Shown here: positions 12,948 through 64,000 of the stretch, piece after piece
Layout: every line of letters starts with the position of its first letter
Position numbering within the stretch: the first letter of the stretch is position 1
Source of the DNA: Candidatus Poribacteria bacterium
GTDB lineage: Bacteria > Poribacteria > WGA-4E > WGA-3G
Assembly (NCBI GenBank): GCA_022394755.1
Contig: JAGFCA010000024.1
Span: 12,368-76,367 of the forward strand
DNA length: 64,000 nt
Direction: 5' to 3'
Notes under the pieces: model-generated
Told to the model about the DNA's origin: nothing
Databases searched by the model: none
The model's input: the letters and a program-made list of their open reading frames with translations, nothing else
Program-made: the position numbers and the translations under genes

Positions 12948-12972
12948 TTCCAGTGATATCATAGGATACCAG

Positions 12973-14023: not shown

Positions 14024-14129
14024 CCCTATGAAGAATTGATTTCTTATTACAAATCCTTAGATATAATTGTCTTAGTTCTTTTTCTAAATTTATGATTTTA
14101 GCTTAGATTACTTAAGGATAGTTATTATA

Positions 14130-15035: not shown

Positions 15036-15155
15036 ATTGCCAAATATCAGACAGACATCTAATTCTCTAACCACATCTTCAAATAAATTGAAAGAGAATA
15101 TTGCAAGATTGGATAGATAATCTGAGTATGTTAACAAGTAAGCAAAAAAGAAAAT

Positions 15156-16652: not shown

Positions 16653-16705
16653 TTTGAAATTATACAAAACTATAATAGAAAAATAAGCAATAGAGGCTTA
16701 ATTTT

Positions 16706-18556: not shown

Positions 18557-18616
18557 CCATAATTCTATACATTCTATAACACTTCATATCTCCTAAAGAT
18601 TGATAAGGATAAAAAA

Positions 18617-19942
18617 GTGAATTTAGATCTGCAACTTACAACACAGACCAAATTACTTATTGGAATTCTCGGGTTAGTACTAATCATAGCATTGGTAACA
18701 CAATGGGGTCCAGGTTTATATAAGATGTTCTCAGACGAGGAAATGGCTGTAAAAAAACAAACTCTTCAAACATCTAAAGATTTAGTAGCTGCTTCAAGAA
18801 TGTTGATACCCATTGAAGTAGGACTATTTGAGAAAACTGGACTTGCCGAAGAAGGTCAGGATGCTTCGATTTTTAATGATAATTTCCCTGAGACTGTCAT
18901 TCGTTCAAAGATTACATCAATTGTTAAAGAAGCAGGAATACCAAGAAATTACCAATGGAACATGGAACCTATCCCAGGCAAGAAGACAGAAAAAATCTCA
19001 CCGCATGCTCGACGTAACTTAATCAACTTTCTATATCTGGAAAAACTAAAAACAGAAAGAGATATCTTACAGTTTGAAATTGAGGATGAACAACAAACAC
19101 AAGAAGATGCTGAAGTACAAGCAGAAGAAGAGATGATGGATCTGTTGATGAATGCATGGTTAGATGAAACTGAAGATATCCCAGAGAAGGAGGAACATGA
19201 ATCCAACAATATGGATATAGAAGAGAATGAGGACGAAGCCTCTGAAGATATCAAGGAAGATGATTCCAACAATAGGGATATAGAAGAGAATGAGGACGAA
19301 GACAAAATCGAAAATGGTATAGAGAAACAACAAGATGGTGATGTCTATACGGACAAAGCTGATTCAGATATGAACCAAAATCAATCGAATGAAGAAGATT
19401 TTGTATCATTGCCAGAGGATATACCAATAACAATTCGAGTGGAACTGATTGATGTACTTCTTTCAATGATTGAACAACAACTTGTTGGAGCTGAAACGAC
19501 ACTATTTGAAAAGGAATTCTATAAATTACAAAAAGAATCGAAAGCAGGATTCTTTGGATTTGGTTCGAAAAAGCCTTCAACGGAAATTAGTTTTAACCCA
19601 AATAGTCAGATATTGAGTACTTTTCTTATTCTTATAAAAGACTATGAATCAGAATTAGATAAGAAGCATCTTTCTTCACTTCTTCTACAATATCTTGAAA
19701 ACATACAGACACAAATCGAAGAACTTACAAAAGGATTGAGATTAGCTCCTTCAACCTACACTCCAGAGAGTTATTCCATAAAAATAAAGTTTAAGGCTGA
19801 ATTGGATAAGCTTGTTAATCTCAATAGGATAATTGAAACTTCATCAAAATGGTTGATGGTAAGAGATCTTAAAATCTCTACTGACAATAAACAAGACAAA
19901 ATAACTGTTGAGTTGTTCTTGATTGCGAGGATTTATCAATGA
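18617..19942 (+). CDS. T2SS-associated bitopic membrane protein with acidic tandem repeats (GspM/GspC position), hypothetical
   Basis: GTG start with AAGGA SD. N-terminal TM (LLIGILGLVLIIALV). In-frame 63-nt-period repeats encoding SNNMDIEENEDEA / SNNRDIEENEDED. No match I can assert to a named Gsp family. Confidence 0.4.
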   Translation: MNLDLQLTTQTKLLIGILGLVLIIALVTQWGPGLYKMFSDEEMAVKKQTLQTSKDLVAASRMLIPIEVGLFEKTGLAEEGQDASIFNDNFPETVIRSKITSIVKEAGIPRNYQWNMEPIPGKKTEKISPHARRNLINFLYLEKLKTERDILQFEIEDEQQTQEDAEVQAEEEMMDLLMNAWLDETEDIPEKEEHESNNMDIEENEDEASEDIKEDDSNNRDIEENEDEDKIENGIEKQQDGDVYTDKADSDMNQNQSNEEDFVSLPEDIPITIRVELIDVLLSMIEQQLVGAETTLFEKEFYKLQKESKAGFFGFGSKKPSTEISFNPNSQILSTFLILIKDYESELDKKHLSSLLLQYLENIQTQIEELTKGLRLAPSTYTPESYSIKIKFKAELDKLVNLNRIIETSSKWLMVRDLKISTDNKQDKITVELFLIARIYQ

Positions 19943-40440: not shown

Positions 40441-41871
40441 TCAAAGATCTAAGGTTGTCTTCAATTGTAAAAATGGGTTCTGTTTTCTTAGGGTGTCTAT
40501 AGATTTCAAGTCCTCAATTGGATTATCTAAAACCATTAAATGTGTGAGATTCTTAAGATTCCCTATAATTCTAATATCGGTAATTTGATTACCAGATAGG
40601 TTTACCATAATTAGGTCCTGCAATTTTACTATCGGTTCAATGTCCTTGATATGATTGTTCATAAGAGATATTGCATTTAGTTTGTTCATATCTGCAAGTG
40701 GAGAAATATCTATAATCTGATTATTTTCCAATATTAGCATTTCCAGTTTTGTTAATTCATTAAGCGGAGAAATATCATTGATTTCGTTTCCAGAAAGGTC
40801 GAGAAAATTTAATTTCTTCAGTTTACTAAGAGGTTGTATTCGGGTAAGTCCACAGTGAATAAGTGAAAGAAATTCCAACTGATGTAATTCTGAGATAGGG
40901 TTTAGGTCATTAATTTGATTATAAGCGAGTGTAAGAATATTTATCTGTGTCATGACTTTAATAGGTGTTAAGTCTGTTATCTGACACTTAATTAATGATA
41001 AGCTTGTAAGATCTGTGATTTCGGTAACTGGTGTTAAATCCTTAATGTCAATGTTTGTTAGTGATAGATCCGTGAGTTGTGTAAGGTTTGAAAGTATGTC
41101 AAAATCAATGTTTTCTAATTCTCCTCCGTTAATAGATAAATTCGTAAGTTGTATCATTCCACCAATAGGTGTGACATCTGCGATTTTACAATTATGTAGA
41201 TGTAACTGTTTCAACTGTGCCATACCAGAGAGCGGAGTGATATCTACAACTTGATTGCTATCAAGAGATAAGTTCGTAAGATTAGTTAATTCTGTCATCT
41301 GATTAATGTCACTTATATCATTTAAGGTAAGTCCTAATTGGTTAAGTTGAGACAATTCAGATAGGACATCAAACAATTCATTAGAATTTTTGATAGTATT
41401 GTTTTTCAGTTCTAAGTGATTGAGATTTTTTAATCCAGCAATCGGATTTATACTTCTTATATTGTTATTAGTTAGGTTTAATGTTTTCAGTTCGATTAAA
41501 TTGGCAAGTGGTTTGATATTAGATATTTTATTATCATTTAGTGTTAATGATCTAAGCTTTGTAAGCTTATTTAGCGGTTTGATGTTTTGAATGTCGTTAT
41601 GATTAAGGAATAAATTGTTTAGATTTACAGCTTTCTCCAAACCGTTTAACCTTGTAATTTCAGCATGGATCGCACCTAAGACTGTTAATTTACTTAGATC
41701 TTCTTCCAATATAGGAGCATCTGGGTCTAATGCAAGTTCTTTTCGTATTGCATTTGCAAGGTTATCATCAGGAATTAAATTCCGTTCAAAAACAGAACAA
41801 CTCAGAAGAACGGTCAGAATCAAGAAAAATACACAGATATGTTTCATTATTTCATCCTTTATAATTTCCAA
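40441..41871 (-). CDS. Exported leucine-rich repeat protein (internalin-like 22-aa LRRs)
   Basis: Signal peptide (MKHICVFFLILTVLLSCSVFE). About 17 consecutive 22-residue repeats LxxLxxLxLxxNxIxDIxPLxx. Confidence 0.8.
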   Translation of the reverse strand: MEIIKDEIMKHICVFFLILTVLLSCSVFERNLIPDDNLANAIRKELALDPDAPILEEDLSKLTVLGAIHAEITRLNGLEKAVNLNNLFLNHNDIQNIKPLNKLTKLRSLTLNDNKISNIKPLANLIELKTLNLTNNNIRSINPIAGLKNLNHLELKNNTIKNSNELFDVLSELSQLNQLGLTLNDISDINQMTELTNLTNLSLDSNQVVDITPLSGMAQLKQLHLHNCKIADVTPIGGMIQLTNLSINGGELENIDFDILSNLTQLTDLSLTNIDIKDLTPVTEITDLTSLSLIKCQITDLTPIKVMTQINILTLAYNQINDLNPISELHQLEFLSLIHCGLTRIQPLSKLKKLNFLDLSGNEINDISPLNELTKLEMLILENNQIIDISPLADMNKLNAISLMNNHIKDIEPIVKLQDLIMVNLSGNQITDIRIIGNLKNLTHLMVLDNPIEDLKSIDTLRKQNPFLQLKTTLDL

Positions 41872-41872
41872 T

Positions 41873-44455
41873 CTATTGATCTAAATATAAATTGGGTTGT
41901 TCTTTTTTTAGATTTTGGATAGGTGACATGTCCACGATTGGGTTATTCTTAATATGTAGGGTCTGCAGCTGATTTAGATTTTCAAAAACACTCACATCCT
42001 TAATTTGGTTATCAGATAAGGATAACCATTTCAGTTTCTTGAATTTGACTATAGGAGATATATCTTCAATTTTATTCTTATTAAGTACTAAACGACTCAA
42101 ATGGTCTAATTTTGAGAGTGGACTAATATCTTCTACTTGATTATTGTATATAGATAAGGAGGTTAACCGTTTCATATTAGATAAAACAGTCACTAATTGT
42201 GTAATATCAGAAATTTGATTTCCCTCTAATGTTAATGATGAGAGACGGGACAAACTTTCAAGAGCCGAAAAATCCCTAATTTGACAATCAATAAGAACTA
42301 AATTATTCAGTTGACTTAATTTACTGATAGAACTAATATCTAAAATCTTAACCGTACTGAGATAAAACGTATGAAGATGTTTCAAATGAGTCAATGGAGT
42401 GAGATCATTAATCTGGATATTGTGCAAGAATAAGGAATTAAGGTGGAATAAATCTGATAGTGGTGATAAATCACTAATCGGATTGTCTTTAATCGTCAAA
42501 TAGGTAAGATTCTGCAATTCTACAAGTGGTGATATATCACGTATCTGATTCTCATCAATTGATAAAGTAGTCAATTTTGACATCTTTATTAGTGGTGTGA
42601 GGTCTTTGATATTATTTCCATCAATTCTTAATGACTCTAAATCTGTCAAGTCAGATAATGGGGTGAGATCCATGATTTCACCACTACAAATATACAGATC
42701 TTGTAAGTTTTCTAAATCTTTCAGCGGAGATATATCTGTAACTTTATTTTCTTTATTATCTTCTGTTCTATAGAATCTACGGAGACGTAAAGTCCATAGA
42801 GAGTTCAATCCAGCAAGAGGGGTAATATCACGGATCTTATTTCCACCCAATCCTAAACTTAGGATGTTTGGTAGTTTTGAAAGTGGTTCAAGGTTAATTA
42901 TTCGATTATCATCTAAAGATAAATGCCGTAACTTTGTCAAATTCTTTAATGGTCTGAGGTCCTCAATATCATTAAACATCAACATAATGCTCGTTAGTTC
43001 TGATAGTCCTTCAAGTGGAGAAATATCTTGAATTTCATTCAATGCAAGATCTAATTCTTCTAATGCAGTAGCAAACTCTAAACCCGTCAAGTCAACTATT
43101 TTGGTGCTATTTGAAGATAAAGTTGTTAGTTCTTTTAGTTTTTCTATTGTAATTAGATCAACTGAACTTAGACCGAGTTGACGTGCAATTGCTGCTTCTA
43201 AGTTTGGATCAGGAATGATCTCAGATTCTGAGGTTACTACATCCTCCATATTCTCTGTTAAGTTAACATCTGTTTGCTGGGTATTGAAAGGAAGCGTCCT
43301 CTTCTGCCTCAGCTCATCAAGCAGACCTGTATCACTTAGTAGCTCTTTATCTACATTTAAAATATCTAATTCCTTTAAACCCTTGAGTACCTGTATATCA
43401 CGGATTTCGTTGTTTTCTAAATGTAAATAAGTTAATTTTTCCAAGTTTGCAAGGGGTGAAACATCTATAATGTCATTGTGTTGAAGGTACAGAGTCTTTA
43501 ATTGCTTCAAACCATTCAAAGATGGCAAGACTTTAATTGAATTATGATTCAGATATAGTGTTCTTAATTTAGATAAATTGTCAATGGATGGGACATCAGT
43601 AATTCTATTGCTGCTAAGGTTTAGAGTGCTTAGATTGGTCAAACTCACTATAGGATTAATATCATTGATTTCATTTCGAGCAAGTTCTAATTCTCTTAAA
43701 TTTACCAACCCCGATATAGGAGTAATATCTTGAATTTTATTGTTCGACAATATCAAAGTCTGAAGATTTAGCAAATTTTCAAGAGAGGATATAGAGGTTA
43801 TACGATTTAAATCCAATGTGAGACTATTTAGTTGTTTGAGTTTTTGAAGTGATGGTATTTCTCTTATTCGATTGTCACGAAGGCTAAGTATTATCAATTT
43901 ATGTAGATTTATAATCGGTGTAAAATCTTGTATCTCATTATATTCAAGGAAAATTGTTCTTAATTGTTTTAGATTTCTTAATGCTTCTATACCTTGGATA
44001 TAATTCCTGGACAGAGATAATGAACGTAGGTGATTTAATTTTGAAATAGGCGTCAAATCTGAAATATGGTTATTATCAAGATTCAAAGACCGAAGTCTTT
44101 TCATTTTCTTTAATGTTGATATATCGGTAATATTATTTCTATAAAGTGATAATTGGGTAAGTTTTGTTAATCCCTGAATTGGTGTTATATCTGAAATCTC
44201 ATTCTGATTAAGTGTTAAGACTTTTAATTCTGTAGCATATTCTAAACCAGATAAATCGTTTATCCCTTTATCAGATGCATCAAGTTCTGTCAATTCCTTC
44301 ATATTTTTATTTAAAATTGGTGTATCTGAATCTATTTTGAGAGCATCTCTAATTGCAGTCTCTAAATTCTTATCTGGTATATCTATTTCTATTGGTTCTT
44401 GTGAAACACAACCAATAAATGCCACAAAGAAAATTAGAAAAATTGCATATCTCAT
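41873..44455 (-). CDS. Large leucine-rich repeat lipoprotein (internalin-like LRRs), 860 aa
   Basis: Lipobox FIGC. More than 30 22-aa LRRs in two blocks separated by a linker. 1-nt gap to the downstream LRR gene. Confidence 0.8.
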   Translation of the reverse strand: MRYAIFLIFFVAFIGCVSQEPIEIDIPDKNLETAIRDALKIDSDTPILNKNMKELTELDASDKGINDLSGLEYATELKVLTLNQNEISDITPIQGLTKLTQLSLYRNNITDISTLKKMKRLRSLNLDNNHISDLTPISKLNHLRSLSLSRNYIQGIEALRNLKQLRTIFLEYNEIQDFTPIINLHKLIILSLRDNRIREIPSLQKLKQLNSLTLDLNRITSISSLENLLNLQTLILSNNKIQDITPISGLVNLRELELARNEINDINPIVSLTNLSTLNLSSNRITDVPSIDNLSKLRTLYLNHNSIKVLPSLNGLKQLKTLYLQHNDIIDVSPLANLEKLTYLHLENNEIRDIQVLKGLKELDILNVDKELLSDTGLLDELRQKRTLPFNTQQTDVNLTENMEDVVTSESEIIPDPNLEAAIARQLGLSSVDLITIEKLKELTTLSSNSTKIVDLTGLEFATALEELDLALNEIQDISPLEGLSELTSIMLMFNDIEDLRPLKNLTKLRHLSLDDNRIINLEPLSKLPNILSLGLGGNKIRDITPLAGLNSLWTLRLRRFYRTEDNKENKVTDISPLKDLENLQDLYICSGEIMDLTPLSDLTDLESLRIDGNNIKDLTPLIKMSKLTTLSIDENQIRDISPLVELQNLTYLTIKDNPISDLSPLSDLFHLNSLFLHNIQINDLTPLTHLKHLHTFYLSTVKILDISSISKLSQLNNLVLIDCQIRDFSALESLSRLSSLTLEGNQISDITQLVTVLSNMKRLTSLSIYNNQVEDISPLSKLDHLSRLVLNKNKIEDISPIVKFKKLKWLSLSDNQIKDVSVFENLNQLQTLHIKNNPIVDMSPIQNLKKEQPNLYLDQ

Positions 44456-44631: not shown

Positions 44632-45558
44632 ATGAAGGTATCAACAAATTATACAATAACTGCTATAGATGGTATACAAGTAGGTCATGCGACTAATATA
44701 TCTGCAAAAACGGGTTGTACTGTGATACTTTGTCCTGAAGGTACTACTGCAGGGGTGGATGTCCGTGGGGCTGCACCCGGCACACGTGAGACTGATGCCA
44801 TACGTCCTGGACGATTAATTCAGGAAGTACACGGAATCCTGTTGACAGGAGGAAGTGCGTTTGGTTTGGATGCTACAAGTGGTGTTGTTCAATATCTTGA
44901 ACAGAGAGAAATTGGTTTTAAAGCAGGAGACGTACGTGTTCCAATAGTTCCGACAGCAGTTATCTTTGATTTACATGTTGGAGATGGAAAGATCCGTCCA
45001 AATAAAGACATGGGATATGAAGCATGTATTAATGCAGATAATACTCAAGTCTTGATGGGGAGTATTGGTGCAGGAACTGGTGCAACTGTTGGAAAAGCAC
45101 CAGGGATAGAACCATCACCAGGAGGAATTGGTTCTGGATGTATTCGTCTTGAAAATGGATTAATTGTTGCTGCTCTTACTGTAGTAAATTCTCTTGGAAA
45201 TGTGGTAGATCCTAAGTCGGGTGAGATTATCTCAGGCGGAAAAGATAAAGGGGTGTATGTGGATATAACCGAACGACTATTAGATGCAGATATTGTTCCA
45301 GGGACAAATACGACCATCGGTGTCGTTGCTACTAATGCTAAACTGACAGTAGCTGAAGCAACACGTGTCGCAGAGATGGCACACGATGGAATGGCACGTG
45401 CAATCTATCCATCACATACCATGTTTGATGGGGATACACTGTTTACCCTTGCTACAGGTAAACATGAACAAAGTAGTGTGAATACGATTGGAATACTCGG
45501 AGCAGAGGCTGTTGCAAAATCAATTGTAAACGCTGTAATGGCTTCAACACCGAGCTAA
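44632..45558 (+). CDS. Peptidase family S58 (DmpA/P1 aminopeptidase-like) protein
   Basis: GIQVGHATN...GCTVIL...LTGGSAFGLDATSGVVQYLEQREIGF...TIGVVATNAKL. Ntn-hydrolase DmpA/ArgJ-like pattern. Confidence 0.65.
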   Translation: MKVSTNYTITAIDGIQVGHATNISAKTGCTVILCPEGTTAGVDVRGAAPGTRETDAIRPGRLIQEVHGILLTGGSAFGLDATSGVVQYLEQREIGFKAGDVRVPIVPTAVIFDLHVGDGKIRPNKDMGYEACINADNTQVLMGSIGAGTGATVGKAPGIEPSPGGIGSGCIRLENGLIVAALTVVNSLGNVVDPKSGEIISGGKDKGVYVDITERLLDADIVPGTNTTIGVVATNAKLTVAEATRVAEMAHDGMARAIYPSHTMFDGDTLFTLATGKHEQSSVNTIGILGAEAVAKSIVNAVMASTPS

Positions 45559-46952
45559 ATGGGTTCACCTTGCATTTCATTGGGTATATTCATACCAAAT
45601 TCCTTTAGTATGGTCGGAGCAATATCATATATGCTTTTCGTTGGAATACTCCCGCGTATATGTTCGCCATTCCTTAAAATAAACATCCCCATCTCGGCAT
45701 GGTTACAATCATCAGGACCTGTATCGTTCTCATAAGTATAGATACTATTATATCCAACACTTCCTACAGAACGCCAATATAGATCACCGAAGTATACTAT
45801 CAGATCTGGTGGTATATTATTACACTCCCGATATACTTCCTTTGGTTTAAAAACGCGTGTATTAATATTCTCACCAGATTCGTCAACAATCGCTTCAAGT
45901 TGTTCCTTTAATTCATTTTGAACCGACTCGTAGTCTTCTGCCCTTACAATCCCATGGGGTTCTCTACCTGCGAGGTTAATAAAGATCCTCCCATAATACC
46001 CACCTTCTCCCCATGCTTTTGTGTTCTCCCAATCAATCATCTCAGGTTTACATTTGGTTATCTTTAGTGGTTTATGTTTTAAAGTAAGATATCCGTTCTG
46101 TTGTAACCATTCATTCACACAGATTCCTCCATCCATCCTCTTCGCACCATGATCTGAAACTACCAAAACAGTTGTGTTTTTGTCAACAAGCGCCAAAATC
46201 GATCCCAGTTCCTCATCAAGTAATCTGTAGTAATTTCGCATAGTATCAGAGAATTTTGAGTTTGGTTCATATTTAAAATGTTCTATATCCCAATATCGCC
46301 AAAATGCATGATGCAATCTATCTGAACCCATCTCAACCATCATAAAGAAATCCCATGCTTTTCTCTCAACCAGATAACGTGCTAACTTAAACCGTTCACG
46401 GGTCATCTTGATTAAATCTTTTTCCAACACCTCTCTATCATCAGTACGATAGTTTGGTATATCAATCATATATTCAGGAGCATTTTGCATGATCTCACGT
46501 GTCAATCTTGGTGGGAATGTACATTGTAGGTTAGACTGTGTGATATGAGTATTGAGATCACCTGGCGTAAGAAAACTGGTAACCATCCACCCGGGAAAAG
46601 GCTTGGCAGGATATGTAAGAGGAACACCAAGTACAACAGAACGCTTTTGTACCTGACCAAGTAATTCCCATAGTGTGGGTACTTTGACTGCCAGTGAATT
46701 GGATATAGACATAGCATCATAGGTATTATCCTTACGATTACGGAAACCGTAAATACCTATTTCGCCAGGATCGCGGCTGGTCATCATACACATCCAGGCT
46801 GGCACGGTGATGGGTGGTATAGTACTCTTTAGTTCACCATAAATTCCCTCTGACATCAGCCGTTGTGTATTTGGCATATCATCTTTGAATGCATCAAAGA
46901 CAAGTTCAGGTGCAGCACAATCCCAACCGATGACGATTACCCGTTTTTTCAT
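45555..46952 (-). CDS. Alkaline phosphatase-superfamily enzyme (type I phosphodiesterase/nucleotide pyrophosphatase-like)
   Basis: MKKRVIVIGWDCAAPE...VLVVSDHGAKRMDGG, metal-ligand motifs typical of PF01663-like AP superfamily members. Confidence 0.6.
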   Translation of the reverse strand: MKKRVIVIGWDCAAPELVFDAFKDDMPNTQRLMSEGIYGELKSTIPPITVPAWMCMMTSRDPGEIGIYGFRNRKDNTYDAMSISNSLAVKVPTLWELLGQVQKRSVVLGVPLTYPAKPFPGWMVTSFLTPGDLNTHITQSNLQCTFPPRLTREIMQNAPEYMIDIPNYRTDDREVLEKDLIKMTRERFKLARYLVERKAWDFFMMVEMGSDRLHHAFWRYWDIEHFKYEPNSKFSDTMRNYYRLLDEELGSILALVDKNTTVLVVSDHGAKRMDGGICVNEWLQQNGYLTLKHKPLKITKCKPEMIDWENTKAWGEGGYYGRIFINLAGREPHGIVRAEDYESVQNELKEQLEAIVDESGENINTRVFKPKEVYRECNNIPPDLIVYFGDLYWRSVGSVGYNSIYTYENDTGPDDCNHAEMGMFILRNGEHIRGSIPTKSIYDIAPTILKEFGMNIPNEMQGEPI

Positions 46953-46960
46953 AGATCCCT

Positions 46961-48313
46961 TTATGCTATACGAGGGTTCTTCCCACCCAGAAATTCTTCA
47001 CTCGTATTCCATAAATCAGCTAAACCGAGTTCCCGAATGTGATCTAACCCTGGAAGAAACGGATCATTTGTCCTGGTTAACCACTTTTGTAGTTCTGACT
47101 CTAATTCTTTACGAATTGTTTGTGAGTCGCTATCATCAATAAGGTTGTTCATCTGATATGGATCGGCATCGTTATCATATAGTAACCAACCTGTTCCATC
47201 ATATTGTCTTGCATAAGTGTGTTGATGAGTTCGAATACCTCGCCATTCCTTTAAACCCCAATTATTACCTTCGCCTCCATGTAATGGTACTCCTAAGAAA
47301 ACTGATTCAGGTTCATCAATAGTCTGTCCAAGCATTGCATCGGACAGGTCTATACCTTCAACACCATCAGGTATAGATAACCCGCACAAGGAAAGCATGG
47401 ATGGCATAAAATCAACAAGTGATAACAGTGTCTCACGAGTAACACCAGCAGGTATTCTTTTTGGATATCTAATCATAAAGGGGATACGGCTTGATTCATC
47501 CCAAGGCCGTTCCTTCCTCACATGTCCATGGCTTCCTATCATGTCTCCGTGGTCTGATGTATAAACAAGAATTGTATCTTCAGCTATTCCAATCTCATCA
47601 AGGGCACTCATTAGTTTACCAAGGTTTTCATCCAAGGCTGTGATATGACTATAGTAACCTGATAAATCTCTTCGTGTGTTTGGAGTATCAACAGCATTTG
47701 GTCGTAATTGGATCTCATCTGGTGGATACATTTCTTTATAATGTTCTGGTACATGTTCATAAGGATTATGGGGTGGACCCCAACTCAAATATAGGCAAAA
47801 TGGATCATCTGCATAATCTTTAAAGAATTCAATTGCCTTATCAGTTTGAAAATCGGGTTCGTACCCTTCAATTTTGAATTGATTTCCATCAGAATCGTGA
47901 TATGGAGCATTAAAATAGTTGTGATGGCAATTCCATCCCACCCAATGGTCGAATCCGAATCGCATTTCAGGAGTAATAGTCTTATTTCTGGGTACTCCAC
48001 CAAGATGCCATTTCCCAATGTAACCAGTAGCATAGCCATCATCCTTGAAAATCTCCGCAATACCAGTTTCTGATAATGGTAACGGAAGATCATTAGAAAC
48101 GGCTTTATGATTTAAGGGGTATTTACCAGTCATAAGACATCCACGTGCTGGTACACATATAGGGACATTCGTGAAAGTATTTGGAAAATACATTCCTTCC
48201 TGTGCCAATTGATCCATTGCCGGGGTCTGTACTTGTGGATTATCAGCACAACCTACATCACATTGACGATGTTGGTCCCCAAAAACAAAAACTAAATTCG
48301 GTTTACGTTCCAT
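46961..48313 (-). CDS. Sulfatase (Cys-type, formylglycine-dependent)
   Basis: VFVFGDQHR...PICVPARGCLMTGKYP (C-x-P-x-R formylglycine motif)...GKWHLGG. No signal peptide evident. Confidence 0.85.
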   Translation of the reverse strand: MERKPNLVFVFGDQHRQCDVGCADNPQVQTPAMDQLAQEGMYFPNTFTNVPICVPARGCLMTGKYPLNHKAVSNDLPLPLSETGIAEIFKDDGYATGYIGKWHLGGVPRNKTITPEMRFGFDHWVGWNCHHNYFNAPYHDSDGNQFKIEGYEPDFQTDKAIEFFKDYADDPFCLYLSWGPPHNPYEHVPEHYKEMYPPDEIQLRPNAVDTPNTRRDLSGYYSHITALDENLGKLMSALDEIGIAEDTILVYTSDHGDMIGSHGHVRKERPWDESSRIPFMIRYPKRIPAGVTRETLLSLVDFMPSMLSLCGLSIPDGVEGIDLSDAMLGQTIDEPESVFLGVPLHGGEGNNWGLKEWRGIRTHQHTYARQYDGTGWLLYDNDADPYQMNNLIDDSDSQTIRKELESELQKWLTRTNDPFLPGLDHIRELGLADLWNTSEEFLGGKNPRIA

Positions 48314-55192: not shown

Positions 55193-55419
55193 AATACACT
55201 CCTAATAATTATATGGTTATTCTCCCATAGAATATAACGTATAGATAATATAGAAAGTTTCACATCGACCATACGTTGGCACTACATAATATATAACAAT
55301 GTCAATAGGTGGATGCTACTTATTCGCTTACATCATCAGTTCTTGTTTTCTCGCTACTTGATATTTTTGACTTTATTTCATTTTGAAAGTATAATATATT
55401 TTTTATGTAGGAGGTGTGT

Positions 55420-57156
55420 ATGAAGCAGTCGAATTCTAATCCTAAGAGATCGAATAACCAAGATACAAACGAAGAAAATACCAATAATTCTCACCAAACA
55501 AATTTTATCCGACAAGCCATAGATAGTGATTTAGAAAATAATAGATTTGATGGTAGGGTTCATACACGATTCCCTCCTGAACCCAGTGGATACCTTCATA
55601 TTGGACATGCAAAGGCAATCTGTATAAGTTTCGGAATTGCCGAAGACTATAAAGGACTTTATAATTTAAGATTTGATGATAGTAATCCTATTACTGAAGA
55701 AAGTGAATACGTAGAAGCAATTAAAAGAGATGTCCATTGGCTGGGATTCGATTGGGAAGAACGGGAGTTTTACGCCTCTGATTATTTTGAGACGCTGTAT
55801 GAATATGCCATTAAACTGATAGAAAATGGGAAGGCATTTGTTTGTGATCTTACTCCTGATGAGATGCGTACCTATCGTGGTACTCTTGTGACTACGGGGA
55901 AGGATAGTCCGTATCGCAACCGTTCAATTGAGGAGAATATTACCCTTTTTCAAGGTATGCGAAATGGTGAATTCCCGGATGGTTCTCGGACACTTCGTGC
56001 CAAAATAGATATGTCAAGCCCCAATTTAAATATGCGTGATCCGGTCATGTATCGTGTTCTTAGATCCCACCATTACCGGCATGGTGATAATTGGTGTATA
56101 TATCCTACCTATGACTTCACACACGGACAATCTGATTCAATAGAGGGTGTAACCCATTCTCTATGTGATGTTCAATTTGAAGACCATCGTCCATTATATG
56201 ATTGGTTCTTAGAAGCCTTAGAGATTTACCGACCCAGACAAATTGAATTCGCTCGATTAAACCTTACCTATACAGTGCTTGGAAAACGCAAACTCAAAAT
56301 CCTTGTCGAAGAAGGTCATGTTGACGGTTGGGACGATCCCAGACTACCTACACTTGCAGGTATGCGTCGAAGGGGATATACACCAGATGCAATAAGAGAC
56401 TTTTGTACCCGTATTGGTGTCTCTAAAGCAGATAATCTTATTGAGTTAAGTCAACTTGAATATTCAATACGAAATGATTTGAACTTACGTGCTCCACGTG
56501 TTATGGCAGTTCTAAATCCGATTAAGGTTATTATTGATAACTATCCAGAAGATCAAGTGGAAATGCTTGAAGCAGAGAATAACCCTGAAGACGAAAGTGC
56601 AGGTTCAAGAGAAATTCCATTCTCAAAAGAAATATATATTGAAAGAGATGATTTCATGGAAGATCCACCACGGAAGTTCTACAGGTTAGCTCCAGGCAAA
56701 GAAGTCCGTCTAAAACACGCATACTACATAACATGTGAGAATGTGGTAAAAGATGAAGACACGGGAGAAATTTTAGAAATACATTGTACTTATGATCCTG
56801 ATACAAGGGGTGGATGGTCTGATGATGGCCGTCGTGTACAAGGAACTTTACACTGGGTTTCAGTGGAACATGCAGCCAATGCCGAAGTACGTCTGTATGA
56901 AACTCTCTTCACCGAACGTGAACCTGAAAATGCTGCTGATGGGTCTGATTGGATACAATTTCTTAATCCAGATTCTTTAGAAATCTTGGAAAATTGCAAG
57001 GTTGAACCAAGCTTGTTAGATGCAGAATCAGAAAGTCGCTATCAGTTTTTACGTACTGGATATTTCTGTGTAGATTCAGACTCAACTGCAGAAAAACTGG
57101 TCTTCAATCGTACAGTTCCTCTACGTGATAGTTGGGCAAAAATGCAAAAGAAATAG
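55420..57156 (+). CDS. glnS: Glutaminyl-tRNA synthetase
   Basis: AGGAGG SD, ATG 55420. HIGH motif [16 protein letters not shown]. GlnRS-specific [11 protein letters not shown]...[20 protein letters not shown]-terminal anticodon-binding barrels. Confidence 0.9.
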
Positions 57157-57157
57157 A

Positions 57158-58663
57158 ATGGACATTAATACTATGAATAGTCACACAACTGTAAATGGTG
57201 AAGTAAGAGTTCGAATGGCACCCTCCCCTACAGGATTTTTACATATTGGTGGTGCCAGGACAGCCTTATTCAATTGGTTGTTTGCCAAACATCATCATGG
57301 AAAGTTCATATTACGAATTGATGATACAGATATCGAACGTTCTACCGATGAATCTATGCACGAGATTTATGAGGCTATGCAATGGTTGGGTTTGGATTGG
57401 GATGAAGGTGGAGAAAAAGGAGGACCTTATGGCCCCTACCTGCAATCTGAACGAAAAGAGGTATACGATAGGTATGTAGGAGAACTTCTCGCCTCTAATC
57501 ACGCATATCATTGTTATTGCACATCTGAAGAATTAGAAGAGATACGTACAGAAGCACGTGAAGCAAAATCAACCCGTTCTTATGATGGTCGTTGTAAAGA
57601 ACTTTCCTCAGAAGTAATTGAGAAATATATAGCTGATGGTAGAAAACCAACAGTACGGATAAAAATGCCAGAAACTTCTATCCTTGTTGATGATCTGATA
57701 CTTGGTTCACGTAATATAGATCCCGCAACACTTGAAGATGAAGTGATTGTTCGTTCAAATGGTATGCCGAACTATAATTTAACATCAATTATTGACGATG
57801 TGGAAATGAATATAACCCATGTCATTAGAGGAACAGAACATCTCAACAATACTCCAAAACAGATTGCAATTGCGAATGCTCTCGGTCTCTCACTACCTCA
57901 ATTTGCTCATATTCCTTTAGTTCTTGATGATTCTGGTAGAAAACTGAGTAAACGCCATCATGGTGATTTGGTTGCGGTTAACCGTTATCGAGAACAAGGA
58001 TATCTTCCTGAGGCAATGTTAAATTTTGTAGCAAGGCTTGGTTGGTCTTATGACGATAAACAGGAGATTTTTTCTCTTGAGGATCTTATTGATAAGTTCG
58101 ATCTTGCACGTGTGGGGAAAAGTGGCAGCGTGTTTGATATTAAAAAATTAGAATGGTTGAACTCACACTATATCAACCAACTTGATGTATCAAGACGTAC
58201 AGATGCAGTAATACCATATTGGCAAGCAGAAGGATTAATTGATTCAATAGAAGATAGAGAAAAACTTGAGAAGATTGTAGAAGCAGTGGGTGAACGTCTT
58301 AACACACTAAAAGACATTGTGCCCCAAACAAGCTATTTCTTTTCTGATGATTTTGAATTTGATCCGAAGGCTACAAAGAAATGGTGGGGTAGCTCAGATG
58401 AAAAGAAACAGAAGACATACGAGATTCTAACTAATCTATCACAGATCTTAGAAGATACTCCAGACTTTGGTTTGGATACAATTGAATCTTTAGTTTGGAA
58501 ATATACAGATGAAAACGATATTAAACGTGTTGCAGCCATGCAATCAATGCGAATTGCATTGACTGGACTGTCCTTTGGTCCAAGTTTGTTTGATATTGTT
58601 GTGTTGCTTGGAAAAGATGAAGTTTTGAAAAGACTTCAAAAGGCAATAGTAAGTCTATCATAA
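57158..58663 (+). CDS. gltX: Glutamyl-tRNA synthetase
   Basis: VRVRMAPSPTGFLHIGGARTALFNW (HIGH region) and KLSKRHG (KMSKS). ATG 57158 is 2 nt after the glnS stop; ATG 57173 is an alternative start. ORF track from 57125. Confidence 0.9.
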   Translation: MDINTMNSHTTVNGEVRVRMAPSPTGFLHIGGARTALFNWLFAKHHHGKFILRIDDTDIERSTDESMHEIYEAMQWLGLDWDEGGEKGGPYGPYLQSERKEVYDRYVGELLASNHAYHCYCTSEELEEIRTEAREAKSTRSYDGRCKELSSEVIEKYIADGRKPTVRIKMPETSILVDDLILGSRNIDPATLEDEVIVRSNGMPNYNLTSIIDDVEMNITHVIRGTEHLNNTPKQIAIANALGLSLPQFAHIPLVLDDSGRKLSKRHHGDLVAVNRYREQGYLPEAMLNFVARLGWSYDDKQEIFSLEDLIDKFDLARVGKSGSVFDIKKLEWLNSHYINQLDVSRRTDAVIPYWQAEGLIDSIEDREKLEKIVEAVGERLNTLKDIVPQTSYFFSDDFEFDPKATKKWWGSSDEKKQKTYEILTNLSQILEDTPDFGLDTIESLVWKYTDENDIKRVAAMQSMRIALTGLSFGPSLFDIVVLLGKDEVLKRLQKAIVSLS

Positions 58664-58892
58664 ATCGATCAATCTATTAATCCAGACTGATTATTAAAGG
58701 TCTTTCTATAACAAAGACACCATCATATTTCTTCTCAATTGATAGTGATATACATAATCACCGGTAATACATTAATTTCCTATCAAGGGGACGGACATGT
58801 GAGTGTATAAATACCATTCATACACTGTTTTTCATTCATTTATTCATTTCAAAGGTTAATTCCTCTGGGAATTGATGCGTATAAAATTCTCA

Positions 58893-59013
58893 AAAACTAT
58901 ACTTGTTAGAAATAATATGTATAGTTTTTATACATATCCTATATAATATGTATAGAAAATGCGGAAAACTATACATGTCAGGAATAATATGTAAAGAATT
59001 TATACATATCCTA
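58893..59013. repeat. Two ~49-bp direct repeats (72-bp period), each containing an internal AAAACTATAC...GTATAGTTTT palindrome, between convergent genes
   Basis: Copy 1 at 58893-58941 and copy 2 at 58965-59013, about 43/49 identical. A TATACATAT/ATATGTATA palindrome lies between them. Confidence 0.45.
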
Positions 59014-59194
59014 ACGACTTTTGCCAGTTAATTGAATTTGACTTTTTTGTGAAATATGAGTTTTGTGCTATAAACATTTCGTCCATATGGGACTAATGAG
59101 ACTTTCAACTAATGCAGGATATATTTCCCAATCATTTTACATGTGAAACTTTTAATTAGTAAAAGTGTCGTAGCACAACTCGTTAATGTAACTA

Positions 59195-60601
59195 TTATGG
59201 ATGAGCTAATAGAGACCAATCTGGTTCATCTTCAGGATCACCAAGAGGTCCGTGTGCATTTCGAATGATACGACGTTGTGCGTCATACCAATCCTTATAA
59301 TTAGTGGCAGGCTGTAGTTTATCATTCCGAGCATTCATCAATTCTGTCAGAGTATTCTCCATTTCATTTACTAATAGTTCGTCTTCTGCACTGTCAATTA
59401 GGTTATTCATTTCAAGCGGATCTTCTTCCAAATTATATAACATCCGTTTTCCATCCAACCATCGTGCATAACTGTGTGTTTTTGTACGAATACCACGCCA
59501 TTCATCACCATCAACAAGATAATCGTAAGTCGCACCGAAGTTCATAGTCAGAACAGCATTCTGTTCAAATGCATTTGGTTCACCACGCCAAGATGATGAT
59601 AGGTCGTACCCTTCAACAGTCCGTGGAGGATGAATATCACATAATCCACAAAGCGAGGGGAACAGATCGACAGGGGATGTAAGTGTATCACAAATTTTGT
59701 TGTCCTCAAATACACCTGGAAACCTCATAATGAGTGGTACTTTGATTGATTCCTCATAAGGTTTCTTCTTAGCCCAAAAGTTGATCCCTTGTGCGCCGCC
59801 CTGTGTTCCGTGATCTGATCCAAAGATTAGCAGTGTATTTTCAACGCGATGCGTTTTCTCAAGATACGACATTAAATCCCCAAGCATATCGTCTATAGCC
59901 AAAGTCATTGCCAGATAGTGTCGATATAATTTTAAGGATTGATCTTTATGTGTATCAGGGACATTTTCTGGCAGACGAAGTTTTGTTGGCAAACGATCAT
60001 AATATTCTTGAGGTGCATATTCATAAGGAGTGGAATGTGCTTGGTGAGGAGAAATAAAAAGACAAAAAGGTGTATCATCATTCTGCTGATCCATAAATTG
60101 GAAAGCATATTGATTCAATGCATCGGTTTCATAACCGTTCCATCTTTCATTTCGCCACTCATCCAAGTTCACTGTACCATTAAAATAATCGGTATGAAAA
60201 TTATATCCTCTCCAATGTTCGAATCCGAATCTGTCTCGACCTTCTGGTACATAATCCCGTCCACCAATTTCAGGAAATGAACCCGTATGGAGATGCCATT
60301 TTCCAACCCAAGCAGTATTATAACCGTTTCTACTGAAAACATCACCTATACCTATTTCATCATGCCTTGTCCTGATAAAATTAATAAGATGACCTGTTGT
60401 TTGTGGATGTCTACCTGTCAACAGCATGGATCTGTATGGAGTACATACTGGTGCGGTTGCAATTGCATTTGAAAAGACTGTACCTTCTGATGCAAGTCTA
60501 TCAATATGTGGTGTATGAATCTGTTCTTCACCATATATAGGCAGAGAAGAAGCTCTGATTTGATCCGCAAGCAGGAAAACTATGTTAGGTTTAGATGTCA
60601 T
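59195..60601 (-). CDS. Sulfatase (Cys-type, formylglycine-dependent)
   Basis: IVFLLADQIR...PVCTPYRSMLLTGRHP (C-x-P-x-R)...GKWHLH. No obvious signal peptide. Confidence 0.85.
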   Translation of the reverse strand: MTSKPNIVFLLADQIRASSLPIYGEEQIHTPHIDRLASEGTVFSNAIATAPVCTPYRSMLLTGRHPQTTGHLINFIRTRHDEIGIGDVFSRNGYNTAWVGKWHLHTGSFPEIGGRDYVPEGRDRFGFEHWRGYNFHTDYFNGTVNLDEWRNERWNGYETDALNQYAFQFMDQQNDDTPFCLFISPHQAHSTPYEYAPQEYYDRLPTKLRLPENVPDTHKDQSLKLYRHYLAMTLAIDDMLGDLMSYLEKTHRVENTLLIFGSDHGTQGGAQGINFWAKKKPYEESIKVPLIMRFPGVFEDNKICDTLTSPVDLFPSLCGLCDIHPPRTVEGYDLSSSWRGEPNAFEQNAVLTMNFGATYDYLVDGDEWRGIRTKTHSYARWLDGKRMLYNLEEDPLEMNNLIDSAEDELLVNEMENTLTELMNARNDKLQPATNYKDWYDAQRRIIRNAHGPLGDPEDEPDWSLLAHP

Positions 60602-60669
60602 GTTTGAGATACCAACAAATTGAATTAATTAGAAATTAGATTATAACAAGACACAAGTTCTCGGATCTG

Positions 60670-61812
60670 TTAGAAATTAAGTCCTAAACTAATTCTATGT
60701 GCTTGTCGTAAATATCCAAAGTCAGCGAAAGAATAATCAAGTGATAACCTTGTCTCAGAAAATTTGTGGTGTATACCCAAACCGATTGTAGGACCTTCTT
60801 CATCATCACGACTATCCGGACCCAGACGAAGTTTATAACCAGCACGAATGGCAGCTGTCCGTTTATACCAATATTCAATCCCAAAGTTAATCCGTTCACT
60901 ATTATCATTTGGGTGGTTACCATCAAGTGCGATAGTTAGAAGATTAGTATCAGAATCGATTAGGTCATAAGCAATACCAAGTCTAAAATTAGATGGCAAG
61001 GGATATTCAATAGTCTTTAATTCTGCTTTACGTGCAGGGTTTGTAGTATCTGGAAAAGGGTGATATTCAGCATTTCGTTCATCTCCTGCTTCTTCTACAC
61101 CGGTTTCAAGATCAGGACCACTGAAACTCATTTCAGGACCGAAGTTTGAAAATGACATGCCAATCCTTAGACTACGCCATCCTGTGTGATACAATGTACC
61201 AACATCTAATGCGACACCAGTAGCTTTCTCTCTGTGAATTTGCTGGTGGATATATTTTGTATTAACACCAAAAGAAAGTTTAGCTCCAGAGTCCTTTTCA
61301 TAGAGTTGTCTGGAATATGCCAATGAAACAGCAGAATCCCAAGCAGAATACATGAGTCCTGTACCATCTGGTTTTGCCAGAGTCGTAATTTCTATGTCTG
61401 GTACATTCAGAAATGTCACACTTCCTCCAAGTGTCCCCACATTCTCAATAGAGGTTGCAAAAGCGAGATAGTTATACTGAATGTCTGCGATCCATAGTGT
61501 ATGTGTATCAGAAAAATTGGTTTTCTTTAATTGACTTAATCCTGCCGGATTCCAATAGATTGTAGTAACGTCATTCGCAATTGCGCTAAACGTACCTCCA
61601 AGACTTTCAACCCGTGCCCCAGGACCAATCTTTAAAAACTGTGCCCCTGCAGTACCTACGTTTGTGGTTGCTTGACTTGGAACATTGTAAAACATCAACA
61701 TTGAAAAGATCATTAAAATTATGAATGTAATATTACATCTTTTCATAGTAGTGCCCTTTTTTTCATTGGTCTTACTATCATCATTATATTTACTGAAAAT
61801 AGAATTATTCAT
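60670..61812 (-). CDS. Outer-membrane beta-barrel protein, PorV (LptO)-like type IX secretion component
   Basis: AGGAG SD before ATG 61812; alternative ATG 61746 (MKRCNITFIILMIF..). After the signal peptide, GTAGAQFLKIGPGARVESLGGTFSAIANDVTTIYWNPAGL matches the conserved PorV N-terminal signature as I recall it. C-terminal Phe (..SLGLNF) is typical of OMPs. Confidence 0.55.
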   Translation of the reverse strand: MNNSIFSKYNDDSKTNEKKGTTMKRCNITFIILMIFSMLMFYNVPSQATTNVGTAGAQFLKIGPGARVESLGGTFSAIANDVTTIYWNPAGLSQLKKTNFSDTHTLWIADIQYNYLAFATSIENVGTLGGSVTFLNVPDIEITTLAKPDGTGLMYSAWDSAVSLAYSRQLYEKDSGAKLSFGVNTKYIHQQIHREKATGVALDVGTLYHTGWRSLRIGMSFSNFGPEMSFSGPDLETGVEEAGDERNAEYHPFPDTTNPARKAELKTIEYPLPSNFRLGIAYDLIDSDTNLLTIALDGNHPNDNSERINFGIEYWYKRTAAIRAGYKLRLGPDSRDDEEGPTIGLGIHHKFSETRLSLDYSFADFGYLRQAHRISLGLNF

Positions 61813-61849
61813 GTATTTCTCCTATAAGGCGTTTGCTTTCAACAAAAGA

Positions 61850-64000
61850 CTATCGTATAATAGCAAAACGACCTATCTTATTTCCAATAACTGCATTTCT
61901 TTCATCTTTCGCTTCAACATGGAATATATATACACCACTTGCGAGTGCTTGATTGTAGCGATTAAGCAGATCGAATTCTGCAGTACCACCCTTATCCCCT
62001 TGTGCTAACCGTTCATCTGGGTTAAAGAGTGTTGTACTTTCATGTTTGATTTCTCTGACTAATTCGCCAGCTAATGTATAAATCCGGATTGTACAGCGTG
62101 GTGGTAGATGAGTGAAGAAAACTTGATCCGTACCTTCTGCTGTAACGGTTTTGTTAGTAACAAAATAGGGATTGGGTACAACGCGAATATTATCAAGATC
62201 ATCCTTTATATTCTCAGAATCAAGTGATTCACCTTCGGTAGAGATAAGCAGTTCGTCGCCATCCTGTGGAGCACTTATACCTCCCATATCTACCGTGAAA
62301 ACGTCTCCAGAGGATATTTCTCCATTAGGATCAAAGATATAGACATACGCACCACGTATGAATATCCTAAAGTATCCGGGAGTGTCTGCGGGTACATATT
62401 CATTACTCCACCCAGAAGCCGTTAGAATAGCATATCCATCTGCTCGTTTGTCATTAAATTCAATTTCTTCATCCAAGTCTTCATCTACAACCTTAACATG
62501 TGTATCGTCAGTAAATGTAATAGTATAAATATGTGGACGGTAGTATGTTGCCCAGAAAATGTTTGGCCATGTATTTTCACCAGCACCCGGAGATTCAATG
62601 ATAACAGACCAATCCGTCACTGAACCAGCAGTTAGTTTGACATCATTAATCGGATTTTCATCAGGAGTGTCGTAGGTTATATCAACACCTTTCATTTTTA
62701 GTATGATTCCATCAAACATCGGTGATAAGGTTTCATATGCAGTATAATTGTTTGCATCATACCAATCGAAGATTTGTTTCTCAACGACAGTTTGATTTGT
62801 GACTGTATCAATTATCTCATAAGAAGGTGGTTGATATCCTGGACCGGTAATATATGCTCCCGGACCAGTCTGTTTAGCTCCATACCATACAATTTTATAT
62901 TGATGTCCTGTTACCTCTTTAGGAGCTAATACCATTGGCTCAATCGTTACTGTTACAGCATCAGGCATCTCGATGTTTACCGACGGTTCTCTATATCCCG
63001 CTGGTTGTGAACGTGGCACGACATGAACCATCGTTTCAATCTGGCTACTTTCCATTGATGGTAAGCCTTTTTTAGGGTTACCTGTATCATAAGATGTGAC
63101 AGCATAAGTATATTGAATACCGTTGATTAACCCTTCATCAGTATAGAAGTTCTTGATACCTGCGTCTTCTCCTAACGCAATTGATGGAGTAGATACAACA
63201 CGGAAAATATCTCCTGCGACTGGCGGACCTGAGGGACCATCGGTAATCTTTACATAAAGTCCACCGAAATAGATTAGTTCACCTGAACGATATGTACCAT
63301 CAGGGAACGGTTCACCAGTGGCTGGATCTTTTACAACAACATAACCACCACCATCACCTGGAAAGGATTCATTATATGCCAAGACTTCCCATAAAGTAGT
63401 GTTGATGATTTCGAAACTTGTACTGGAATTCAATTTGATAGCGTATGCAGCATTCTTAAAGAAATCAGCGAAATGGGGTTCATCCCCCATACTTTCAATG
63501 GTAGAATCGGATAGTTTCCCTACGTGAGATACTGTGAAGAAATTACCAGTTGCACTTGGTTTGTCGAATTCGATCAACATTTCCCAATCTTCAACTGGTT
63601 TTCCTGTATTCTCATCGTAGGCTGTATCACGTCGATAAACTCTATAACCTTCAAAAATCTTTTCAGAATCTGTGGGATCAATATATTCTTCAATCTTCTT
63701 ACTAACTCCTTCTGTCACCCACCGATCAGCACTATCCCAAATCAATGAAACTTGACCATCGGCTGGATAGGCAGTCACAAGTGGGGATGGAGGAGGTGCA
63801 GGAGCAATATAGTCATCATCATAAAGTTTCTGTGCCCAATCAGATGAAGCCTGCAGTCCTGCTAATCCTTCACCGATTGCAACTGCAATGATGACGTTAA
63901 ATGTATCACCTGGTGCGAAAGATTCGACTGGACCGTATGATTGAATAAAACGTTGATCATCATAATTAGCAGGAAGTGGTTCCACACCTGGTGTACTGAT
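61850..64000 (-). CDS. Large secreted protein with type IX secretion C-terminal sorting domain (CTD), 5'-truncated by window end; PorU-like by synteny
   Basis: Frame stays open to nt 64000. Last ~90 aa (VVPNPYFV...TIRIYTLAGELVREI...GVYIFHVEAKDERNAVIGNKIGRFAIIR) have the alternating-hydrophobic beta-sandwich pattern of Por_Secre_tail CTDs. Immediately upstream of the PorV-like gene. Confidence 0.55.
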   Translation of the reverse strand: MSTPGVEPLPANYDDQRFIQSYGPVESFAPGDTFNVIIAVAIGEGLAGLQASSDWAQKLYDDDYIAPAPPPSPLVTAYPADGQVSLIWDSADRWVTEGVSKKIEEYIDPTDSEKIFEGYRVYRRDTAYDENTGKPVEDWEMLIEFDKPSATGNFFTVSHVGKLSDSTIESMGDEPHFADFFKNAAYAIKLNSSTSFEIINTTLWEVLAYNESFPGDGGGYVVVKDPATGEPFPDGTYRSGELIYFGGLYVKITDGPSGPPVAGDIFRVVSTPSIALGEDAGIKNFYTDEGLINGIQYTYAVTSYDTGNPKKGLPSMESSQIETMVHVVPRSQPAGYREPSVNIEMPDAVTVTIEPMVLAPKEVTGHQYKIVWYGAKQTGPGAYITGPGYQPPSYEIIDTVTNQTVVEKQIFDWYDANNYTAYETLSPMFDGIILKMKGVDITYDTPDENPINDVKLTAGSVTDWSVIIESPGAGENTWPNIFWATYYRPHIYTITFTDDTHVKVVDEDLDEEIEFNDKRADGYAILTASGWSNEYVPADTPGYFRIFIRGAYVYIFDPNGEISSGDVFTVDMGGISAPQDGDELLISTEGESLDSENIKDDLDNIRVVPNPYFVTNKTVTAEGTDQVFFTHLPPRCTIRIYTLAGELVREIKHESTTLFNPDERLAQGDKGGTAEFDLLNRYNQALASGVYIFHVEAKDERNAVIGNKIGRFAIIR

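Follow-up and report, generated by a model that had tools for sequence, protein, structure and literature searches.

Gene order at the right end of the window

In a 64,000-nucleotide stretch of contig JAGFCA010000024.1 from a Candidatus Poribacteria bacterium (hereafter the window, meaning the whole stretch analysed), three minus-strand genes occupy the right end, and two of them belong to a three-gene outer membrane module found in many bacterial phyla. The three are a sulfatase gene (59195..60601; 468 amino acids (aa), Pfam Sulfatase 7e-52 together with SGSH_C), an open reading frame (ORF) of 380 aa as listed (60670..61812) that encodes an outer membrane β-barrel of the FadL-like PorV/PorQ family and is followed 68 bp downstream by the sulfatase gene, and an open frame of 716 codons that extends from 61850 to 64000, where it runs off the end of the window. 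The C-terminal part of the last reads ...CTIRIYTLAGELVREI...SGVYIFHVEAKDE...GRFAIIR.

An exact-protein look-up of the barrel retrieved a 14.8-kb contig, L001, which overlaps the window over 58978..64000. Since there are no mismatches across the 5,023 overlapping bases, L001 legitimately extends the window, and in it the full gene (L001:6982-9963) encodes a secreted, all-β protein of 993 aa whose stop codon lies 37 bp upstream of the barrel gene. The window thus holds the 3′ 72% of this gene (61850..64000, residues 278-993 and the stop). A preliminary description of this DNA, drawn up from the truncated frame, had called its product a giant protein, which the completed length does not bear out. 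A promoter and terminator scan of 58500..64000 gave counts equal to those of shuffled sequences and no terminator in either gap between these minus-strand genes; it was uninformative.

The downstream gene encodes a PorV/PorQ-family barrel

The 380-aa ORF carries the motif GTAGAQFLKIGPGAR...TTIYWNPAGL, in which the preliminary description had recognized a PorV-like N-terminus. The assignment to this family stands: the protein matches the NCBIfam PorV/PorQ family model NF033709 at 3.7e-66 and 224 bits (cutoff 90), and the match spans the entire model (1-326 of 326). It also passes the Pfam PorV model (29.6 bits, cutoff 27), scores 41.5 bits on UPF0164 and is matched by Flavobacterium johnsoniae PorV (PDB 6h3i_F) at 4e-7. 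Identity with PorV itself is another matter, for the barrel falls below every equivalog cutoff in the family, namely those of PorV (NF033710, 90 of 250 bits), PorQ (NF033711, 106 of 220 bits) and PorV2 (NF052325, 94 of 325 bits), and orthologs of the barrel from Melioribacter and Calditrichia likewise stay under all three. The true start of the protein is probably an internal methionine at residue 23, with a signal peptide after it. Two other identities were considered and rejected: a FadL-type transporter of hydrophobic compounds as the primary reading (Toluene_X 20 bits against 29.7, compared with 224 bits on the PorV family model) and BamG (14 bits against 250).

The 993-aa protein ends in a divergent T9SS-type domain

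The last domain of the 993-aa protein (residues 872-993; 61853..62218) carries the motifs VVPNPY, LPxxCTIRIYT, ASGVYI(Y/F)HVE and G(K/R)FAII(K/R). The preliminary description had read it as a C-terminal domain (CTD) typical of type IX secretion system (T9SS) cargo, and at the level of fold this holds. Modelled alone with AlphaFold2, the tail forms an Ig-like β-sandwich (pLDDT 78), as T9SS CTDs do, and in a Foldseek search of the PDB the CTD of PorZ (5m11) is by far its best match (E 8e-7, TMq 0.62, 24% identity), with PorU (6za2) third at 1.3e-3 and the CTD of the T9SS substrate NucA in its translocon complex (8glk_D) at 3e-3. Comparison by sequence is less generous to the cargo assignment. 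The tail scores 12-13.5 bits on the type-A model TIGR04183, for which 23 is required, and does not match Pfam Por_Secre_tail (PF18962) even at E<=10; on a hidden Markov model (HMM) built from 71 canonical type-A CTDs of neighbouring proteins at the loci described below, the Poribacteria tail scores lowest (9.6-13.7 bits), the median for its family being 18.

The nearest sequences are again PorZ and PorU. A profile built on the final ~125 residues, run against 177,635 distinct PDB sequences, found only the C-termini of PorU (6za2, 1e-3) and PorZ (5m11, 0.03). On the NCBIfam models the tail reaches 30 bits for PorZ (NF052228, cutoff 260, model positions 663-749 only) and 12.5-13.1 bits for PorU (NF033707, cutoff 420), and among 40 distant family members the tails match the PorZ model in 35 and the PorU model in 19. 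PorZ and PorU are known to retain uncleaved CTDs, which are held on PorQ and PorV respectively (PMC10202324). Because the type-A thresholds fail while matches to PorZ and PorU stand in both sequence and modelled fold, the tail is related to the T9SS CTD but divergent, and closest to these uncleaved domains. An HMM of this tail found no carrier in the window and L001 other than the 993-aa gene, and the type-A CTD HMM likewise matched that gene alone in the window and the Poribacteria loci L001, L082 and L084.

An all-β body without a Pfam family

The protein begins with a Sec signal peptide that has no lipobox cysteine. A Pfam scan of the full 993 residues returned no family at all, even at E<=10, and no Peptidase_C25; among the NCBIfam models only the last ~110 residues match, all below threshold, and a full-length profile run against the PDB sequences gave nothing meaningful. 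We therefore relied on structure prediction for the body, using an ortholog (P0001, 93% identical) with a 75-sequence, cross-phylum alignment. The AlphaFold2 model is all-β and multi-domain, with a mean pLDDT of 79.8.

Four regions can be told apart in the model. The N-domain (residues ~27-340) has the β-supersandwich fold common in carbohydrate enzymes and resembles galactose mutarotase; its end (residues 278-340) lies in the window at 63812..64000, and residues 27-277 lie beyond it. In most of its top structural neighbours (GH15, GH94, GH65 and GH116 glycoside hydrolases) the matching part is the non-catalytic N-domain; the (α/α)6 catalytic domain is absent from the model. Polysaccharide lyases and GH174 fucanases are also among the structural neighbours. 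Two acidic residues of the N-domain are invariant (D128 and D200) and two nearly so (D183 and D292); N167 is invariant as well. An FN3-like domain follows (residues 341-608; 63008..63811) with motifs that are conserved in the alignments, FEGYRVYRR ... YTYAVTSYD (FEGYRVYRR ... GIQYTYAVTSYD in the window). It is interrupted at residues 402-560 by an insertion of ~160 aa, parts of which were modelled with low confidence; the insertion has an occupancy of 0.31 in other phyla and appears to be largely specific to Poribacteria. Two variable β domains, delimited by secondary structure in the model, fill residues 609-870 (62222..63007), and the CTD completes the protein.

Conservation across phyla is uneven along these domains. 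The mean majority frequency is 0.45 in the N-domain, 0.52-0.54 in FN3 and 0.50 in the CTD, and falls to 0.28 in the middle domains. This contrast suggests a protein with constant docking parts and a variable, ligand-binding part, for which the middle domains are the candidates.

A conserved three-gene module

When 1.84 billion cluster representatives were searched exhaustively, the 993-aa family came to 3,128 clusters (50% identity) at E<=1e-3 and 1,201 at 1e-10, mostly of 900-1,300 aa. None of the 40 distant members mentioned above has a Pfam domain over its body. A scan of GTDB species genomes located relatives in KSB1, Calditrichota, WOR-3, Stahlbacteria, Marinimicrobia, Zixibacteria, Krumholzibacteria, Ignavibacteria/Melioribacter and Rhodothermales. 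For gene order we sampled 80 loci from phyla of the Fibrobacteres-Chlorobi-Bacteroidetes (FCB) type, counting in each ratio only those loci with sufficient flanking sequence.

A homolog of the window's barrel lies directly downstream of the ~1000-aa gene, on the same strand, in 69 of 70 loci (phmmer with the window barrel, E 1e-44 to 1e-78), whose own matches to the equivalog models of PorV and of PorQ are far less close (about 1e-25 to 1e-31). Clustering of the ORFs placed a TonB-dependent transporter directly upstream in 57 of 60 loci, and the median gap between ORFs is 4 nt. The transporter is ~900-1000 aa long and consists of CarboxypepD_reg, Plug and barrel domains. Its best NCBIfam match is SusC/RagA (TIGR04056), in the N-terminal part only and with 79-86 bits against a cutoff of 368. 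These observations define a widely conserved module composed of a SusC-like transporter, a ~1000-aa, all-β putative surface protein and a dedicated barrel of the PorV/PorQ family. In some genomes the module is present in several copies, as on one Calditrichia chromosome that carries both L045 and L047.

The neighbourhood of the module in FCB-type genomes is one of carbohydrate utilization. Four annotated loci contain LacI, carbohydrate-binding modules (CBM20, CBM48 and CBM9), α-amylase, GH94, glucoamylase, GH53 and sugar ABC binding proteins, and many of the flanking genes in these four examples encode CTD-bearing proteins, with Por_Secre_tail on the CBM20/48/9 proteins, the α-amylase and GH53. 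The same conserved N-domain adjoins enzymes for different polysaccharides. On a 3.25-Mb Rhodothermales contig the order is peptidyl-prolyl isomerase (PPIase), transporter, protein, barrel, with an amylase, a sulfatase and a CTD-bearing GH53 nearby. A xylan locus of Rhodothermus marinus has been described as LacI, CTD-bearing xylanases, the TonB receptor Rmar_1070, a hypothetical protein with a Por CTD (Rmar_1071) and a hypothetical protein (Rmar_1072) (PMC6987092). Rmar_1070-1072 resemble the module by description only; a search with the ortholog from Rhodothermus sp. did not establish identity with Rmar_1071/1072.

A PPIase gene with Rotamase domains, similar to SurA and PpiD, stands directly 5′ of the transporter in 19 of the 80 loci (for example L050, 1564..3315, and L085, 5671..7104). 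Its presence in about a quarter of the FCB-type loci suggests that the module has a periplasmic chaperone of its own.

The synteny bears directly on the proposal, made in the preliminary description, that the truncated gene is PorU, and hence on the idea that the window carries a porU-porV pair (the T9SS sortase with its shuttle or anchor barrel) marking a canonical attachment complex. The gene order does mimic such a pair, with a CTD protein directly 5′ of a PorV-family barrel, and the PorU CTD is the best PDB sequence match of the tail profile. PorU identity nevertheless fails at the level of sequence and of fold: the complete protein lacks a Peptidase_C25 domain, its 12.5 bits on NF033707 (cutoff 420) come from the tail only, and its N-domain is a β-supersandwich. 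The barrel, for its part, earns only 90 of the 250 bits set for PorV. In FCB bacteria, moreover, single genomes carry multiple copies beside different carbohydrate enzymes, with the transporter as the invariant third partner. We regard a porU-porV pair as scarcely tenable here. This corrects an inviting mis-annotation: where the gene of a CTD protein adjoins that of a PorV-like barrel, the two need not be PorU and PorV, nor do they prove a T9SS.

The module in Poribacteria

Poribacteria, a candidate phylum, do not belong to the FCB group. The closest full-length homologs of the 993-aa protein (76-93% identity) are annotated as hypothetical, and those that are named come from Candidatus Poribacteria. 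A transporter of the module's family is encoded on L001, beyond the window end and ~5 kb upstream of the 993-aa gene, and the family occurs in three further Poribacteria loci. The order there is RecO, transporter, a set of variable small genes with GFO_IDH and PMT_2, the 993-aa protein, the PorV-like barrel, the sulfatase and glycyl-tRNA synthetase (GlyRS); one divergent Poribacteria genome shows transporter, PMT, protein, PorV-like barrel and sulfatase. The sulfatase holds the same position in every Poribacteria locus examined (L001, L082/L083 and L084).

PMT_2 proteins of the ArnT or protein-mannosyltransferase type are encoded between the transporter and the 993-aa gene (L001, 4987..6855; L082, 7568..9442; L084, 8026..9837). 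Each Poribacteria locus examined has PMT_2 at the module, and all 80 FCB-type loci lack it; the enzyme might add sugars to the surface protein or to the envelope.

The PMT_2 glycosyltransferase just upstream would also suit an accessory pair of the PorZ-PorQ kind, in which the protein delivers a glycolipid or lipopolysaccharide to the sortase, or otherwise services a T9SS, from a PorQ-like barrel. The tail is indeed most similar to that of PorZ, and PorQ is the equivalog model on which the barrel scores highest (106 bits). That score is set against a cutoff of 220, however, the 30 bits on the PorZ model (cutoff 260) are confined to the tail, and the structural model has no β-propellers, of which PorZ has two. 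PMT_2 itself is absent from the FCB loci, and neither the number of copies per genome nor the invariant transporter fits a single housekeeping accessory of the T9SS. Such a pair seems to us quite improbable, if less so than a porU-porV pair.

Whether a T9SS is present to export the protein in Poribacteria is a separate question. We recognized no T9SS core genes (porK/L/M/N, also called gldK/L/M/N, and sprA/sov) among window ORFs of >=150 aa or in the L001 extension, mostly by reading and in part by HMM check. An earlier study of Poribacteria single-cell genomes reported TIGR04183-like domains on proteins but no structural genes of the Por type, and it did not settle how such proteins are exported (Kamke et al. 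2014, PMC3909097). SprA is described as specific to FCB bacteria, yet as occurring throughout the broader FCB superphylum (PMC12611786), so FCB carriers of the module plausibly export its protein by a T9SS.

A candidate SusD-less glycan capture system

We propose that the module is a nutrient (glycan) capture system that dispenses with SusD and in which the surface protein is anchored by its CTD on a barrel of its own, a reading to which we assign a probability of roughly one half. It draws on three observations, namely the pattern of conserved docking parts and variable middle domains, the carbohydrate-type fold of the N-domain and the carbohydrate-utilization neighbours. From genomic context and predicted fold we infer the surface location, the docking of CTD on barrel, the contact with the transporter and the glycan nature of the ligand. 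The 993-aa protein, exported by Sec, would cross the outer membrane and stay on the cell surface. There its PorZ/PorU-like CTD, uncleaved, would dock on the 14-strand PorV-like barrel, in the manner of PorZ on PorQ or PorU on PorV, and we accordingly propose the barrel as the cognate anchor of this CTD. The supersandwich and FN3 domains would engage the SusC-type transporter, and the variable middle domains would bind a substrate (most probably a glycan) for the TonB-dependent transporter to import. The protein would in this way play for SusC the part of SusD or of the surface glycan-binding lipoproteins, anchored by a CTD and a barrel and not by lipid. In Poribacteria the sulfatase that adjoins the module suggests sulfated glycans as the substrate, and its adjacency fits the diet of sulfated sponge glycans that has been proposed for this phylum.

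The same synteny and the same carbohydrate context would also serve for a surface-displayed enzyme, anchored through its CTD on the barrel and feeding the transporter, whose supersandwich and middle domains together make up a novel catalytic unit acting on glycans (a lyase, for instance). The lyases and GH174 fucanases among the structural neighbours, whose β-rich domains are catalytic, and the conserved acidic residues D128, D200, D183 and D292 all lend this some appeal. In most of the top structural neighbours, however, the matching domain is non-catalytic, and a single conserved N-domain stands beside enzymes for varied polysaccharides, where substrate-specific enzymes would be expected to differ. 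We think a catalytic role unlikely.

Several points weigh against glycan capture, most of them from Poribacteria. The supersandwich fold is not confined to carbohydrate proteins and is found, for example, in the periplasmic domain of YidC. In Poribacteria the module sits among housekeeping genes (RecO, GlyRS and glutamyl-tRNA synthetase, GluRS), and between one and six inserted genes part the transporter from the other two. It is unusually conserved there (76-93%) and apparently forms one ortholog group, the next relatives having no more than 43% identity, and no canonical CTD-bearing carbohydrate enzymes flank it in the Poribacteria loci examined. If Poribacteria really lack SprA, the passage of the 993-aa protein across the outer membrane would be unaccounted for.

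This Poribacteria profile fits equally well an envelope-structural role that has no part in nutrient uptake, in which the β-protein is a coat or adhesin that both barrels export or anchor, possibly independently of a T9SS core in this phylum. A single, very conserved ortholog group among housekeeping genes and beside PMT_2 is what one might expect of such a component, the frequent PPIase chaperone gene ahead of the module would suit it, and Poribacteria have been reported to possess CTD proteins without Por structural genes (PMC3909097). The transporter, on the other hand, has the standard Plug and barrel that are typical of importers, and the carbohydrate-utilization context of the annotated FCB loci favours uptake. 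Nor is any TonB-dependent-transporter-type barrel known to export proteins. An envelope or export function therefore strikes us as doubtful, about on a par with the enzyme.

A more speculative thought, and in our estimation also an unlikely one, is that Poribacteria export and display the protein without SprA or PorKLMN, so that the two barrels would form a self-contained, CTD-dependent device for display and uptake, and the module would represent an ancestral, SusD-independent coupling of T9SS-style anchoring to TonB import in FCB-type bacteria.

Relation to known systems

The elements of the proposed system are known separately: a CTD with its cognate barrel from PorZ-PorQ, PorU-PorV and the type-B proteins with PorP/SprF, and a transporter with a surface partner from SusC/SusD. 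PorZ-PorQ and PorU-PorV of Porphyromonas gingivalis are closest, each being a surface protein held by an Ig-like CTD on a FadL-like barrel of the PorV/PorQ family (PMC10202324); the tail described here is nearest to these two CTDs and the barrel belongs to the same NCBIfam family. The module differs in having neither C25 nor β-propeller domains and a barrel that is not a PorV or PorQ equivalog. Its genes are adjacent and joined to a TonB-dependent transporter, it is multicopy beside carbohydrate enzymes in FCB bacteria, and its host here is a member of the Poribacteria.

Type-B cargo with PorP/SprF-like barrels, such as SprB-SprF, shares the arrangement of a dedicated barrel gene beside its own CTD protein (PMC10202324; PMC9143113), whereas the module has a tail related to type A and PorZ and a PorV/PorQ barrel in place of PorP/SprF. 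The type-B model CHU_C matched only a neighbouring protein, in L050, with a score below cutoff. With SusC/SusD (RagA/RagB) the module has in common a CarboxypepD_reg transporter followed by a large extracytoplasmic partner, in loci with LacI-type regulators, glycoside hydrolases and CBM proteins. SusD, however, is an α-helical lipoprotein, while the module's partner is all-β, with a signal-peptidase-I signal and a CTD; the module has a third gene, the PorV-like barrel, and its transporter gains 79-86 of the 368 bits of TIGR04056. Finally, in BamG-BamH of the Bacteroidota β-barrel assembly machinery a FadL-like 14-strand barrel also serves as the platform for a surface protein (PMC12578637), but BamH, a lipoprotein, is attached through its N-terminus and not by a CTD, there is no link to a TonB-dependent transporter, and the BamG model gives the module's barrel 14 of 250 bits.

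In a literature search we found no description of the three-gene module, the 993-aa family or its occurrence in Poribacteria, which does not in itself prove novelty. The module is nonetheless very widespread, with more than 3,000 clusters at 50% identity, and yet it has no Pfam model and is annotated only as hypothetical in the sources examined. It unites CTD/PorV-type anchoring and SusC-type import, both hallmarks of FCB-type outer membranes, and suggests a route of polysaccharide capture in FCB-related phyla where it replaces the SusD partner. For Poribacteria it offers a handle on the question, raised in 2014, of what deals with their CTD-bearing proteins. Melioribacter, Rhodothermus and Caldithrix are cultivable carriers.

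Other genes in the window

The preliminary description had also noted a type II secretion system (T2SS) in the same DNA, and Pfam matches over 9146..26061 confirm it: T2SSE (4.9e-127), T2SSF (5e-60), T2SSG (2.6e-36), N_methyl, T2SSK (2e-17), PilM_2 and two secretins, which together supply the ATPase, platform, major and minor pseudopilins and secretin of such a system. The cluster uses a PilM-type protein, has no recognizable GspL and is closed by tandem secretin paralogs on the plus strand (19939..22941 and 23056..26061), each of ~1000 aa with six Secretin_N domains and one Secretin domain, and 75% identical to one another.

Scans of the 64-kb window for tRNAs and against Rfam gave no match, and its G+C content is only 32-41%. 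Further along on the minus strand are two adjacent genes whose translations read as leucine-rich-repeat proteins of 476 and 860 aa (40441..41871 and 41873..44455), with N-termini that look like signal peptides or lipoprotein signals; the pair resembles the eukaryote-like repeat proteins described for sponge-associated Poribacteria. A second sulfatase-like protein (46961..48313, minus strand) has the CxPxR motif in the form CVPARG and adjoins a 465-aa ORF (45555..46952, minus strand), so that the 64 kb hold at least two sulfatases when the one at 59195..60601 is counted. On the plus strand, tandem class-I aminoacyl-tRNA synthetases, one like glutaminyl-tRNA synthetase (GlnRS; 55414..57156) and one like GluRS (57125..58663), are encoded by ORFs that overlap by 32 nt and converge on the module operon.

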